Origin: Escherichia phage vB_Ec_DUEC01
Reading direction: 5' to 3' (one strand)
Sequence record: PQ799475.1
DNA: 43,949 nt
Below the pieces are notes generated by a model that was not told where the DNA came from, ran no database searches, and was given only the letters and a program-made list of their open reading frames with translations. This document shows, in pieces, positions 33,535 to 42,259 of the stretch. The translations under genes and the position numbers were made by a program. Numbering within the stretch: the first letter of the stretch is position 1; the number at the start of each line of letters is the position of its first letter.

Positions 33535-35757
33535 CTATTCCAAATCCTCCTCTGTCACCACCAGCATCTCATTTGGTTCGTATAGTGTCTTCGGCCTTAA
33601 TCTATCCCCTATTCTTTCGGGTATACGATATGTTCTCGGTACTACTTCGCCGTTAGCATCGCAACCAAGCATTAGTTCTCCATCTTTCAACATTTTATCA
33701 AGATGGGTGTTAGTCACAGAGAAGTCACCGGAACGAGCCACTATCTGCTGCTGAGTAAAACCGCGACCTGTGTCATCTGACTGTTGCAGGTCTTCCAGTG
33801 CCGAAAGTATTGACTCCTTCCTTACTTCATCCCTGCCGCGTTTAACTTCTTCCTTTACTTTTTGCTTACCTTCTTTCGTCAACCCTTCTTCCCGCTCTTT
33901 CTCCTCGTCAGTTTTGAACGGCTCGAAACCCCACGGCATCAACACAAGCGCCTTGTGTGGTTCAGGAAGGTCCAGGTTTACGATTGTGCCGTATTCTTCT
34001 GTGCCCCCCAGGAACTCAACCGCACGGTACTCTTTCGGCGGCGGAGCTTCGCGGAACTGCACAGACTCCAGCACCATGCCAACCGTTTTCTGTTGAGGAC
34101 CGTGCTTAAATTTCGAGTGGTATACGTTTATTTGACGGTCGGTTGCACGTTCGATTGTCAGTTCCACGTCAACACCCGCATACAGCGCCCCACTGCCGCG
34201 TGCTTTCTTTCCACCCTTCGGCGTATGGTGGACAACGCCTACTGCGGCTTTAGTTGCATCGCGTACTTCTTTCAGAATGGCGATAACTTTACCCATGCCG
34301 ATTGCTGTTGATGAACTGTTCTCGTCGAACTTATCAATCGTCAGTGCCAGGGTCTGGTTAAGGGTGTCGAACGCAACCATGCCAATTGGCTCGTCGCCAG
34401 CAGTTTCGCGCATTAACTTAATCAGGCTTTTAAGTTTGCCGACTTCGCCCATATCGATGACGTGTACATAATCTTTACCTTCCCCGCCATATTTAGCCGC
34501 TAGTGCATCAATACGGGTGCGTGTAGCTGCGCCACCCTCACCATCAATATAGAAATGGTGGCAACGCTGGGTATCCGCCCCCGCAAACCTGTACCCGGCG
34601 GCGCTGAGGTACATCATCCCCAGCGTATAGAACGATTTGTACGTGCCAGATTCCCCGACGATATCCCAGATACAATCCGACGGCATGTACCCCTCAACGA
34701 CGAAATCAGCCTTTACCGGCTCCGGTAACTCGTCCTCCTCTGAGTCCTCGTCGTCTTCCAGGTCGTCGAGGCTGCAAGTTACTGGGTCCTCGTTCTCTGT
34801 GCGGTGTAGTTCTTCAATCTCTTCTTCCGGTAAATCAGGCAGAGCCGCACGAATGCTGTTAATGCTGATAGGTTGCTTATCTATGTTAAGCTCGTCGGGT
34901 AGGCCACACATACGCAGGGCCAAATGCTGCCTACGGTTAAGCTCGGTGCAAGCGCCGTTGTTTGTATGCTGGCAGACAAAGCGCACTTCTTTACCGTCGA
35001 GCATTATGCTGGTGGAGCCCTTGCCTGTATGCAGATGTTCGTTAGGGCATGGCACTTCGTACCCGCGCCCGGAAGATAAAGCGTCAAGGCCAAGCTCGGC
35101 TTCGCAGAAGTGTGCTATATCCGCGTTAAGCCCATGCTCATCAGCGGCAAGTGTTTTAGCCTCACGCTTACGCAACCCCATCTCTTCGGCTTTCTTGATG
35201 TACCGCTCAGCACGGATAACACGCCCTTCTGTAACCGTTATCTTCGACTCTTTATGCGGCAGGTAGATAAGGCGGTTGCCGTCTTCTGTGCAGTGGTCGC
35301 GCAACGCTTCGTCTATTTCTAACTCTGCACAAATAGCACGTTGCACCATCCACGCGTCGTTAGAGTTAAACGGCGTGCGAGCTGGAACCAGAACGCGGAA
35401 AGCGTAATCTCCATTTTTACATGCGTGCTGATGCGATGCCGTTGTGTGCAGAATATTGAAGAACGGCGCGTTCTTGAATTTGCGTGTCAGGTCGCGGTAC
35501 TGAGTACGGTTGAGATGGTCGAAATCGAACTTAACCACACTGTCTTCCAGGATAGCGTTTTTACGGCGACCACCAACAGGCGCAATAGCTTTCTGTTTAA
35601 TCTTGGCAGCGTCGTACTCTTCCTTAGTCCATGACGGGTCCACGGATAAACGCTTCGATGTATCGCAGACATACTCGACAAACTGCTCCAGCGGCATTTC
35701 ACGCGCTACAGGGTTTTTATCGAATGTGTTTCGCAGCGTTGCAAAAACAATATTCAT
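33535..35757 (-). CDS. DNA primase-helicase (primase-polymerase-like N-terminus + P-loop NTPase)
   Basis: 740 aa; Walker A IVGESGTYKS in C-terminal half; Cys/His cluster mid-protein; position in replication module. Confidence 0.65.
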   Translation of the reverse strand: MNIVFATLRNTFDKNPVAREMPLEQFVEYVCDTSKRLSVDPSWTKEEYDAAKIKQKAIAPVGGRRKNAILEDSVVKFDFDHLNRTQYRDLTRKFKNAPFFNILHTTASHQHACKNGDYAFRVLVPARTPFNSNDAWMVQRAICAELEIDEALRDHCTEDGNRLIYLPHKESKITVTEGRVIRAERYIKKAEEMGLRKREAKTLAADEHGLNADIAHFCEAELGLDALSSGRGYEVPCPNEHLHTGKGSTSIMLDGKEVRFVCQHTNNGACTELNRRQHLALRMCGLPDELNIDKQPISINSIRAALPDLPEEEIEELHRTENEDPVTCSLDDLEDDEDSEEDELPEPVKADFVVEGYMPSDCIWDIVGESGTYKSFYTLGMMYLSAAGYRFAGADTQRCHHFYIDGEGGAATRTRIDALAAKYGGEGKDYVHVIDMGEVGKLKSLIKLMRETAGDEPIGMVAFDTLNQTLALTIDKFDENSSSTAIGMGKVIAILKEVRDATKAAVGVVHHTPKGGKKARGSGALYAGVDVELTIERATDRQINVYHSKFKHGPQQKTVGMVLESVQFREAPPPKEYRAVEFLGGTEEYGTIVNLDLPEPHKALVLMPWGFEPFKTDEEKEREEGLTKEGKQKVKEEVKRGRDEVRKESILSALEDLQQSDDTGRGFTQQQIVARSGDFSVTNTHLDKMLKDGELMLGCDANGEVVPRTYRIPERIGDRLRPKTLYEPNEMLVVTEEDLE

Positions 35758-35882
35758 TTCTTTTTCTCCGCACGTTCTAAGGCTTCCTGCATACGGCGCA
35801 TTGCGCGGTTCATCTTTACCGGCGCGAAGAAATCGGCGCCGTGTTTCTGGCGGCGCAGCTGTGGAACTATTAACTTCGTCAT
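35754..35882 (-). CDS. small basic protein (42 aa, putative)
   Basis: MTKLIVPQLRRQKHGADFFAPVKMNRAMRRMQEALERAEKKK; RBS AGGA; ATGA-coupled to primase start. Confidence 0.4.
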   Translation of the reverse strand: MTKLIVPQLRRQKHGADFFAPVKMNRAMRRMQEALERAEKKK

Positions 35883-35951
35883 TGTATAATCCTTGTGCTT
35901 ACTTTGATGATTTGTGCTTTGGCCCCGACGTTCTTGCGTTGGGGTTTCTTT

Positions 35952-36242
35952 TTACCGTTTAGCCAACCCTTCCAGCAAATTTTTATACTCTTCAAAATAT
36001 TCCTCGACCAAATCATCGCCGAAATAGAAGTCGATATACTCGAGATTATCTCTTACGTTAAGCGATGCCGACATGGTGCTTAGTTGGCGTAAGCTAATTA
36101 GCTTCATTTCTGTTTCTACGCAGAAAGGCCGGTAGGTATCAAGATGGCAAGAGATATTGAAGCATAAAGCGAACTCTCCGGCCACGGAGTGAACCATATA
36201 CACTTCGTTTTCTGCTTTATTGTGGAAAATTACGCCTTTCAT
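35952..36242 (-). CDS. hypothetical protein (96 aa)
   Basis: ORF overlapping upstream HTH gene stop by 4 nt. Confidence 0.45.
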   Translation of the reverse strand: MKGVIFHNKAENEVYMVHSVAGEFALCFNISCHLDTYRPFCVETEMKLISLRQLSTMSASLNVRDNLEYIDFYFGDDLVEEYFEEYKNLLEGLAKR

Positions 36243-36421
36243 TTCACGTTCTCCTTAATCCATGCTTCGACTTTATTACGGTCAAATGTTCCCGGTAAAC
36301 GGCGGCCCATAACCTTAATACAGCAGTCAGGGAATTTGCCGCTGCGCAACCAGTTATTAATGGTCTGACGTGTCACCCCGATACGCTCGGCTACCTCATT
36401 CTGTGTCATGTAATGTTGCAT
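36239..36421 (-). CDS. small HTH DNA-binding protein (AlpA/excisionase-like)
   Basis: MQHYMTQNEVAERIGVTRQTINNWLRSGKFP HTH pattern; start at ATG with GGGGA RBS (track ORF extends to 36535). Confidence 0.55.
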   Translation of the reverse strand: MQHYMTQNEVAERIGVTRQTINNWLRSGKFPDCCIKVMGRRLPGTFDRNKVEAWIKENVK

Positions 36422-36451
36422 TTTTATATCCCCTGTTTGTTTAGTGAAACC

Positions 36452-36480
36452 GAGTATAGGATAGCGGGAATGTAAAAGCA
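36452..36480 (-). promoter_or_regulatory. putative leftward promoter TTGCTT-N17-TATACT
   Basis: sigma70-like boxes ~25 nt upstream of the HTH gene start on minus strand. Confidence 0.4.
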
Positions 36481-36518
36481 ACCAATCCCTGCAATATTTA
36501 ATCTTTACAAAAAAGTTA

Positions 36519-36548
36519 TTGAAAGTTCTTGACACATGTTTGTATAAT
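36519..36548 (+). promoter_or_regulatory. putative rightward promoter TTGAAA-N18-TATAAT
   Basis: near-consensus boxes in the divergent control region; no ORF follows for ~350 nt. Confidence 0.45.
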
Positions 36549-41526: not shown

Positions 41527-41590
41527 CACCTGAGACTAATCCGACGATACTTAAATCACCTCCTGTTCCATACCTCTGCTCTCCAGTTTT

Positions 41591-41622
41591 ATCCCGGCCC
41601 TGACCCAGCCGGGATTTTTTTT
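41591..41622 (+). terminator. rho-independent terminator (ATCCCGGC-loop-GCCGGGAT + T8)
   Basis: 8-bp stem followed by TTTTTTTT after endolysin. Confidence 0.75.
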
Positions 41623-41644
41623 ATCTATTTTCTGCAATGACTAG

Positions 41645-41673
41645 TTGACTATTACCTACGACCCTATTATATT
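41645..41673 (+). promoter_or_regulatory. sigma70-like promoter TTGACT-N17-TATATT
   Basis: near-consensus boxes; ~27-nt leader to ATG 41707. Confidence 0.55.
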
Positions 41674-41706
41674 TACTCCATCGACAACGAGAACGGAGTA
41701 GAGAAG

Positions 41707-41955
41707 ATGAGTAACGTACAGACAATCGCAATAACCGAGGAACTTGAAGCCAAATGTATCGCATGGACTATGGGTAATGACCGGGTTGCTATGCGTAAAT
41801 TTCCAATGAAAATCACAGACATCGAAGCATTCAAAGATGCACAACTGATGGCACGTATTGCCGTTGGCAACCTGAGCAACAATATCCCGGCGGACGCGTT
41901 CTGGGCTGCGGCGATGCAGACACTTAAAGCAGCTTATGCAGGAGAGAAGAAATGA
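41707..41955 (+). CDS. hypothetical protein (82 aa)
   Basis: RBS GGAG; first gene after promoter. Confidence 0.5.
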   Translation: MSNVQTIAITEELEAKCIAWTMGNDRVAMRKFPMKITDIEAFKDAQLMARIAVGNLSNNIPADAFWAAAMQTLKAAYAGEKK

Positions 41956-42104
41956 CAGTCTATGTCGTAGAAGGGCGTAACGAATATGAAGACCCCGAAG
42001 TATTGGGTGTGTTCGGCGCCGAGGAATCGGCGAAGCACTTTGTTGACATGGAACAGGGCACTTACGACTTTTTCTCAGTTACAGAATGGGAGGTACAACA
42101 ATGA
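41952..42104 (+). CDS. hypothetical small protein (50 aa)
   Basis: ATGA-coupled, below track cutoff. Confidence 0.4.
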   Translation: MTVYVVEGRNEYEDPEVLGVFGAEESAKHFVDMEQGTYDFFSVTEWEVQQ

Positions 42105-42259
42105 GTGAACAAGGACCAGTAAGCCAACCATTACGGGTAGGCCGTAAAGTCAGTCACATCCCGTTCCCGACACGTGAAGAACTGATGAAACGTAACAGTT
42201 TCCCGGGGCCGGACAAGAACAAGTATCTCAATCGCATGTGGGGAGAGCGTAAAGAATGA
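42101..42259 (+). CDS. hypothetical small protein (52 aa)
   Basis: ATGA-coupled, below track cutoff. Confidence 0.4.
   Translation: MSEQGPVSQPLRVGRKVSHIPFPTREELMKRNSFPGPDKNKYLNRMWGERKE

Follow-up and report, generated by a model that had tools for sequence, protein, structure and literature searches.

Six small open reading frames of Escherichia phage vB_Ec_DUEC01 as genuine genes packed into operons in which stop codons overlap start codons

We examined six short open reading frames (ORFs), here called A to F, in Escherichia phage vB_Ec_DUEC01 (PQ799475.1), a Kagunavirus (Guernseyvirinae) of Escherichia coli with a genome of about 44 kb. The window is the whole stretch of 43,949 nucleotides that we analyzed. 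A sequence-only reading of the window had claimed that stop/start overlaps (ATGA or TAATG) at many gene junctions expose small ORFs that had been missed, and that small early proteins of this kind are often host-takeover or anti-defence factors. Codon-level selection, conserved length, and family membership, all drawn from comparison with relatives, show that the six ORFs are real genes. We consider it very probable that they are ordinary small protein-coding genes, packed in Kagunavirus operons with ATGA termination-reinitiation. The six ORFs are as follows.

ORF A: 35754-35882, minus strand, 42 amino acids
ORF B: 37518-37661, plus strand, 47 amino acids
ORF C: 41952-42104, plus strand, 50 amino acids
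ORF D: 42101-42259, plus strand, 52 amino acids
ORF E: 8241-8420, plus strand, 59 amino acids
ORF F: 38271-38420, plus strand, 49 amino acids

All six are present exactly where the sequence-only reading had placed them, and each has an ATG start, a stop codon, and a length that is a multiple of three. They are missing from the default ORF list because each encodes fewer than 60 amino acids. The credible ribosome-binding sites claimed for them were also found, as a Shine-Dalgarno (SD)-like motif at each ORF: AAGGA for A, GGGG..GAG for B (a weak motif), AGGAG for C, GGAGG for D, AAGGAAAGG for E, and AGGAG for F. Chance ORFs are plentiful in this DNA, with 116 ORFs of at least 30 amino acids in 9.4 kb; therefore, the presence of an ORF is by itself no proof of a gene, and we looked for proof in tests of conservation.

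We gathered relatives from IMG/VR around D, the helicase-primase gene, and the major capsid gene, then added annotated GenBank relatives and metagenomic contigs carrying C. Selection was assessed with Nei-Gojobori counts summed along the edges of minimum spanning trees. In the frame of each ORF, omega (dN/dS) was 0.04 for A, 0.22 for B, 0.20 for C, 0.21 for D, 0.19 for E, and 0.19 for F, and the excess of synonymous changes had p values from 8e-8 to 5e-128. Read in frames +1 and +2, the same alignments gave omega values exceeding 1, and stops interrupted every sequence or nearly every one. Because a collection made with tblastn may favour protein conservation, we repeated the test with homologues taken from ungapped blastn with frame ignored; the repeat agreed, and the two collections together span omega values of 0.04 to 0.24. 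ORF lengths were constant, and internal stops were absent, in 4 to 78 distinct sequences per ORF. Conservation of frame and dN/dS in related phages, which the sequence-only reading had put forward as its own check, thus came out in favor of coding.

A gene finder based on codon usage and ribosome-binding sites, trained only on the 18 longest ORFs of the window, picked all six ORFs with positive scores. Those of B and D were low (3.9 and 4.0), as they might be if one or more of the ORFs were untranslated and owed their conservation to an element of RNA or DNA (for example, a leader or a site of processing or binding). The protein encoded by A is almost invariant, so for this ORF a constraint on the nucleotides themselves is conceivable. 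However, changes are concentrated at the synonymous sites of the coding frame only, and this holds for all six ORFs, as does the constancy of length without internal stops; in addition, Rfam gives no family. The codon-position pattern largely refutes an RNA or DNA element as the explanation, and we regard it as highly improbable.

Independent annotation agrees with genuine coding. Coding sequences (CDSs) of the same size are annotated at the orthologous positions in Bas70 (Escherichia phage MarieHeimVoegtlin_Bas70, PQ850619) and Bas71. The Bas70 orthologues of A to F (Bas70_0052, _0061, _0076, _0077, _0014, and _0064, respectively, with equivalents in Bas71) are alike in position, length (129, 144, 153, 159, 180, and 150 nucleotides), and overlaps, with 94 to 100% protein identity; nothing material differs, and they are deposited as "hypothetical protein" with no function to transfer. 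Elsewhere, Glimmer called a homologue of A with a 4-nucleotide overlap in phage K1B4, and Logan/ENA gene callers predict C and D with 4-nucleotide overlaps. Each ORF has a full-length match above cutoff to a PHROG family (23061, 15836, 3002, 4684, 4451, and 4653 for A to F), and three match Pfam families above cutoff: DUF7336 (C), DUF2737 (D), and DUF7170 (F). The PHROGs, DUF7336, and DUF7170 are all families of unknown function. Proteins identical to those of A, C, D, E, and F can already be found in NCBI and other collections, and none of the six proteins is hydrophobic. The genes and their overlap architecture are therefore already known, from annotated orthologues, catalogued families, and a textbook operon layout. 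The claim that they had been missed holds for a list cut at 60 amino acids and for certain published annotations (HSE2 lacks an annotation of C, and K1ind2 lacks one of D), but not for Bas70 and Bas71 or for the PHROG and Pfam catalogues.

The junctions of A to D involve the following neighboring genes.

Replicative helicase-primase gene: 33535..35757, minus strand, 740 amino acids with an AAA_25 domain, downstream partner of A
Gene upstream of B: 37261..37521, plus strand, start uncertain (37261 ATG or 37297 GTG), TGA overlapping the ATG of B
phrog_2180 gene: 41707..41955, plus strand, 82 amino acids ending ...AAYAGEKK, TGA overlapping the ATG of C
phrog_1402 gene: 42256..42441, plus strand, 61 amino acids, ATG overlapping the TGA of D, adjoining D in 77 of 121 loci

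Stop/start overlap is the dominant junction type in both arms of the genome, where the sequence-only reading had noted it at many junctions. Our own crude gene model contains 65 same-strand junctions, of which 16 have a 4-nucleotide overlap (15 ATGA and 1 TTGA), 5 a 1-nucleotide overlap (TAATG/TGATG), and 6 an 8-nucleotide overlap; overlaps and gaps of at most 3 nucleotides together account for 45 of the 65. The deposited annotation of Bas70 has 4-nucleotide overlaps at 20 of 74 junctions and 1-nucleotide overlaps at 7 of 74. The TGA of A overlaps the helicase-primase ATG (AAATGA), the ATG of B overlaps the TGA of the gene before it (TTATGA), and both C and D have an ATGA overlap at each end. 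Termination-reinitiation pairs are co-directional and share a 4- or 1-nucleotide stop/start overlap, an arrangement found at A/helicase-primase, upstream gene/B, 41707 gene/C, C/D, and D/next gene. The overlap pattern thus does expose A, B, C, and D, as the sequence-only reading held, but not E, which is flanked by gaps of 36 and 3 nucleotides, or F, which has a 100-nucleotide gap upstream and an 11-nucleotide overlap downstream; neither lies at an ATGA/TAATG junction.

The ATGA is kept in relatives at the stop junction of A (8 of 8), the start of B (35 of 37), the start of C (6 of 6), and most starts of D. Upstream of D it is retained even where unrelated cassettes replace the upstream gene. 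Adenine precedes the stop in 19 of 34 genes that end in TGA (p=5e-6 compared to 20% adenine at third codon positions); a genome-wide count of ATGA tetramers was uninformative as a null model because in-frame internal ATGs dominate it.

The genes lie head to tail in long polycistronic operons. In the mechanism that we propose, where stop and start overlap as ATGA, a ribosome ending the upstream gene could re-initiate on the downstream gene, assisted by the SD-like motif within the upstream coding sequence. Expression of neighbors would thereby be tied together and intergenic space removed. Of 14 ATGA/TGATG pairs tested in E. coli and Haloferax, 13 were strictly translationally coupled (Huber et al. 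2019, PMC6728339). The pairs in the window are like those described there and in a review (PMC12548453) in that they are co-directional, overlap by 4 or 1 nucleotides, and have the SD inside the upstream gene; the published pairs belong to cellular genomes. Taking the anatomy of the junctions, their conservation, and the published experiments on other ATGA pairs together, we infer that translation is probably coupled at these junctions. Junctions of the ATGA/TGATG kind are amply documented in prokaryotic and phage genomes in general; therefore, the original observation is correct yet not unusual.

The overlaps could instead be a passive by-product of compaction and of start and stop turnover, with each gene initiated from its own SD. 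Consistent with this, an SD-like motif stands before every downstream gene, and by genetic-code reasoning, codon sequences permit only overlaps of 1, 4, 7, 8 nucleotides and so on, making the peak at -4 and -1 partly structural. A simulation study ascribes the distribution of overlap lengths to disruption and replacement of start and stop codons (PMC3887535), and the enrichment of adenine before TGA is modest when set against the adenine-rich last codons of all genes. Passive origin fits less well with the persistence of ATGA across relatives and cassette replacements, with the conserved 3' codons of F, which give a start to three unrelated downstream genes, and with the coupling demonstrated experimentally in the 13 pairs noted above (PMC6728339). 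We judge it unlikely that the overlaps are only passive.

Several observations weigh against the reading of the six ORFs as genuine genes with coupled translation. The selection statistics use non-independent sequences and approximate Nei-Gojobori counts. A few deposited relatives (e.g., Sciku and Schulenburg) carry a truncated or frameshifted A; the gene may thus be dispensable, or these records may be erroneous. Our gene model is a crude one, and how start sites are chosen affects its -8 and -11 counts. Compared to the 38% adenine before TAA and TAG stops, adenine before TGA is in excess at only p=0.03. Finally, because each downstream gene carries an SD of its own, initiation could be independent.

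A encodes a very basic protein (isoelectric point 11.4) and lies within the replication operon. Its omega value reflects 13 synonymous changes compared to 2 nonsynonymous changes (p=8e-8), and it belongs to no family other than its PHROG. We found A in 42 phage records, all of them Kagunavirus-type. Among 1.84e9 representative proteins, A is related only to its own cluster; word-index and exhaustive HMMER searches for distant relatives returned that cluster plus one spurious repeat protein. By these sequence searches, A is a Kagunavirus-restricted ORFan.

A strictly co-occurs with the "MNIVFATLRNTFDKN" type of helicase-primase N terminus and is always ATGA-coupled to it; helicase-primases with other N termini occur without an A-type ORF. 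The boundary of this mosaic lies inside the helicase-primase. Wherever A is present, the N-terminal 120 amino acids are 97.5 to 100% identical, and behind the same module of A and N terminus the C-terminal part is either about 31% or 99% identical. The C-terminal part encoded in the window is 91 to 94% identical to that of phages with a different N terminus. A is likely an accessory of the replication module that is tied to one N-terminal (primase-side) type of helicase-primase. The co-occurrence fits this role, but plain physical linkage would explain it equally well.

The ATGA pattern also led to a seventh ORF (35879-36016, minus strand, 45 amino acids), whose TGA overlaps the ATG of A. We rejected it as non-coding, and it served as a negative control: its in-frame omega was about 0.7 to 1.3, relatives contained stops, and it overlaps a 96-amino-acid gene. 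In the 69-nucleotide gap between that gene and A there is a GC-rich hairpin (35921-35946), which is terminator-like only on the plus strand, antisense to the operon.

B is a basic protein with a conserved core of 38 amino acids (MREAFERWA...AWRAWKAG) followed by a hypervariable C-terminal tail. It was found in 142 phage records, with omega between 0.22 and 0.24. Among 47 homologues of B, 40 carry a precomputed match to PF26207; B itself had no match at E<=1 in the copy of Pfam that we searched, from which the PF26207 model is presumably absent. The AlphaFold2 (AF2) model of B is a helix-loop-helix (pLDDT 85), for which no fold match was found. The gene that follows B lies 3 nucleotides downstream and adjoins B in 55 of 64 loci.

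DUF551 gene: 37665..37859, plus strand, Pfam DUF551 match at E=2.7e-15

B is likely a helical partner of the DUF551 gene. We also considered B and the DUF551 gene as the halves of a split two-domain protein and rejected this, leaving them as conserved neighbors only. B weakly matches phrog_343 (positions 39 to 85 of 135), the DUF551 gene matches other PHROGs and not phrog_343, and no stop-to-stop ORF containing both modules was found in 208 loci. The hypervariable tail corresponds to positions 37630-37661 of the window, and some relatives (e.g., loci L084, L016, and L022) carry tandem (GVTGG)n repeats there, which suggests slippage or recombination at the junction of B and the DUF551 gene.

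C is strongly acidic, with a net charge of -10. It matches DUF7336 (PF24024) with 44.8 bits compared to a cutoff of 25, residues 1 to 49 aligning with positions 1 to 52 of the 60-position profile, and its homologues carry precomputed PF24024 matches (omega 0.20, p=3e-9). C lies directly upstream of D in all 14 loci examined. The slot upstream of D (41940-42110) is variable: the ...AAYAGEKK gene stands directly before D in 44 loci, a C-type gene in 16, and an unrelated 65-amino-acid gene in 12, and there are several other alternatives. The 4-nucleotide overlap is kept in nearly all of them, and several of the alternative genes end in ...AGEKK. C is likely an optional acidic mini-domain cassette inserted just before D. 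The AF2 model of C is a beta-beta-alpha-beta mini-domain (pLDDT 81), with weak fold matches to two small acidic phage proteins, T7 Gp2, an inhibitor of RNA polymerase, and phi29 p56, an inhibitor of uracil-DNA glycosylase. There is no sequence similarity to either protein (2 to 9% identity in the alignments), and for a small fold this common, scores of that size do not rise above noise. We treat the predicted likeness as a lead and not as a family assignment.

D is basic and matches DUF2737 (PF10930) over residues 21 to 46, with 38.5 bits compared to a cutoff of 25; NCBI labels an identical protein "DUF2737 family protein". Alignment shows a conserved core, P[FM]P[TS]REELMKRNSF...NKYLNR, and omega ranges from 0.14 to 0.21. 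D was found in 549 phage records, which include lambdoid phages and essentially all Guernseyvirinae. Its lambdoid relatives, HK620 hkaI (HK97 gp38-like), just downstream of an abc2-like gene, and a small P22 ORF that lies upstream of eaE and abuts it, both belong to early-left accessory regions. They share the core REELMKRNSF...NKYLNRW and a length of about 50 amino acids with D, whereas the N-terminal 20 residues of D differ. The setting differs as well, in that D follows the lysis cassette and precedes the terminase genes of a virulent siphovirus. D is likely a core accessory gene in common with the lambdoid early-left "ea/hka" regions. Some depositors have given the neighboring DUF2737 gene a wrong "NinH/NinZ-like" label, which is probably explained by a 78-amino-acid gene (43268-43504, plus strand) whose match to Pfam Phage_NinH stays below threshold (20.8 bits compared to a cutoff of 29.8).

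F matches DUF7170 (PF23776) over its full length, with 62.1 bits compared to a cutoff of 27, and has omega values of 0.14 to 0.19. Its 495 phage records are of very different kinds, including Klebsiella Webervirus, T4-like Krischvirus (where it lies next to nrdG), Vibrio phages, and others, and F is 55 to 64% identical across these unrelated groups. The gene that follows F in the window starts inside it.

phrog_1972 gene: 38410..38682, plus strand, 90 amino acids, starting at an ATG within the conserved C-terminal codons of F (TATGAATTTTAG)

The C-terminal codons of the F family (...EFGV[IV][DE]YEF*) read ..GGGGT..TATGA[AG]TT[CT]TA[AG] (window 38385-38420), and in four lineages the following gene is annotated to start at the ATG that lies 11 nucleotides before the stop of F. 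We compared the F junctions of three loci (L214:1501-2146, L215:728-1079, and L217:1201-1633). The genes that start in the end of F fall into three unrelated groups: the 90-amino-acid gene (with its homologue in E. coli phage B1.3), a 69-amino-acid gene of Klebsiella phage Skenny, and the nrdG gene of Krischvirus G37-3. On this comparison, the 3' end of F appears to be a portable SD and start for whichever gene follows, and F is likely an accessory gene that moves horizontally and whose 3' end also serves the following gene as its translation-initiation region.

E lies between a Hoc-like decoration gene and an Ad1 head-tail adaptor gene, within the head-neck morphogenesis module. Its alignment has a conserved DNYV[IV]RE...NNGGG core and an arginine-rich tail, with omega values of 0.09 to 0.19, and its 460 phage records are essentially all Guernseyvirinae. 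Some depositors call E a "head-tail joining protein", a label that position alone supports; the Protein Data Bank (PDB) has no sequence relative of E, and our search of the literature on virion proteomics of Jersey-type phages found nothing usable. Judged by its genomic position, E is likely a small morphogenesis-module protein and not an early gene. Between the Hoc-like gene and E there is a UUCG-tetraloop hairpin (GGCCC TTCG GGGCC, 8211-8224) with no T-run, which could be an mRNA stabilizer or processing element.

We assigned the window to Guernseyvirinae/Kagunavirus because its megablast relatives are Kagunavirus isolates of the BASEL collection. The query 35500-42500 returned 448 phage records, headed by Bas70, 71, 76, 75, and 72, with 92 to 94% identity across 71 to 84% of the query. 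Terminase and structural genes on the plus strand are followed by a leftward replication arm on the minus strand (about 24.8 to 36.4 kb). A divergent control region of 482 nucleotides separates this arm from a rightward arm made up of numerous small genes, the lysis cassette, and another cluster of small genes. Three predicted or sequence-read signals lie in the rightward arm and its control region.

Sigma-70-like promoter (TTGAAA, 18 nucleotides, TATAAT): 36519..36548, plus strand, predicted, the region's best, heading the rightward arm with B and F
Intrinsic-terminator-like hairpin (ATCCCGGC / GCCGGGAT, then T8): 41591..41622, plus strand, 3' of the endolysin gene, read from the sequence
Sigma-70-like promoter (TTGACT, 17 nucleotides, TATATT): 41645..41673, plus strand, predicted with 10 of 12 matches, preceding the 41707 gene and the C-D cluster

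Predicted promoters thus precede both rightward clusters, and the number of sigma-70-like sites in the region is not above the shuffled expectation. The terminator-like hairpin was not picked up by a consensus scan. A scan of the whole window found no Rfam or tRNA matches. The only Kagunavirus RNA-sequencing time course, made with phage K1B4, puts the helix-turn-helix gene that heads the leftward operon in the early class and the helicase-primase in the middle class, and its resolution is too coarse for the small ORFs.

Between the best promoter and the first rightward gene there is an untranslated leader of about 350 nucleotides (36549-36903). It contains two hairpins, a long one (36574-36611) and a GC hairpin that resembles a terminator (36748-36768; GGGCAGGC/GCCTGCCC, then TTT), and it has no Rfam match; in Bas70, tiny minus-strand ORFs are annotated in this region. 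Two further genes are insertions relative to Bas70. An HNH_3 endonuclease gene (40487-41053, plus strand) lies between the second holin and endolysin genes; it is probably a homing endonuclease, given that it is not found in Bas70 or Bas71, where those two genes abut. A 248-amino-acid gene (17097-17843, minus strand), a reverse-strand insertion after the tape-measure gene that is absent from Bas70, has T5orf172/MUG113 (GIY-YIG-like) and CapR-homology matches and is probably a homing endonuclease or moron.

The sequence-only reading had cast the small proteins as early host-takeover or anti-defence effectors, which would bind and inhibit host enzymes or immunity proteins. Some of the evidence above is compatible with such a role: the C-terminal core of D is common to small ORFs of lambdoid early-left regions, F is spread over unrelated phage groups in the way that a mobile accessory gene would be, the slot filled by C is one of variable cassettes, and a predicted promoter stands ahead of the C-D cluster. 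The label of early proteins does not apply across the board, given that E belongs to the structural module and A to the replication operon; for B, C, D, and F it is conjectural. We searched for homology of the six ORFs to host or defence targets in Pfam, NCBIfam, PADLOC, PDB sequences, and fold libraries and found no significant match; the only hits lacked significance (E 0.098 in NCBIfam, well short of the cutoff, and E >= 0.13 in the PDB). For C, D, and E, nothing of use came from the PDB sequence searches, and the fold resemblances are weak. Assigning function by homology through Pfam, PHROGs, NCBIfam, and PADLOC was abandoned, as it led to unknown-function families or nothing. A literature search for DUF2737, DUF7336, DUF7170, or their Pfam accessions found nothing functional, with one incidental mention of DUF2737. 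In BASEL phenotyping, moreover, Kagunaviruses are reported to be highly sensitive to restriction-modification and variably sensitive to Old (PMC11990801). A general effector role is therefore doubtful in our view, and the database matches do not bear out the proposal of host-takeover or anti-defence factors.

Two narrower proposals are speculative, and we think them unlikely: that one or more of the small proteins outside the structural module specifically inhibits or modulates a definable target, and, separately, that F genes are portable coupling cassettes. The best candidates for the former would be C, as an acidic protein that binds a host nucleic-acid enzyme in the manner of Gp2 or p56, and A, as a partner reserved for a single primase-domain type of helicase-primase. 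For the latter, the C-terminal codons of F cassettes (GGGG..TATGA) may carry the SD and start for the downstream gene.

The scientific weight of these findings is small, and their value is mainly practical. With a cutoff of 60 amino acids, about one gene in four goes unseen in this phage group, as 22 of the 83 CDSs of Bas70 encode fewer than 60 amino acids. Stop/start overlaps are a reliable guide to such genes, which is of practical use because published Kagunavirus annotations differ widely, from 57 ORFs in K1B4 to 83 in Bas70. The small genes constitute a pool of uncharacterized proteins, and given that D, E, and F each occur in 460 to 549 phage records, finding what any one of them does would provide annotation for hundreds of genomes. 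If the proposal for F is true, F would be a transferable translational-coupling module common to Kagunavirus, Webervirus, and Krischvirus phages.

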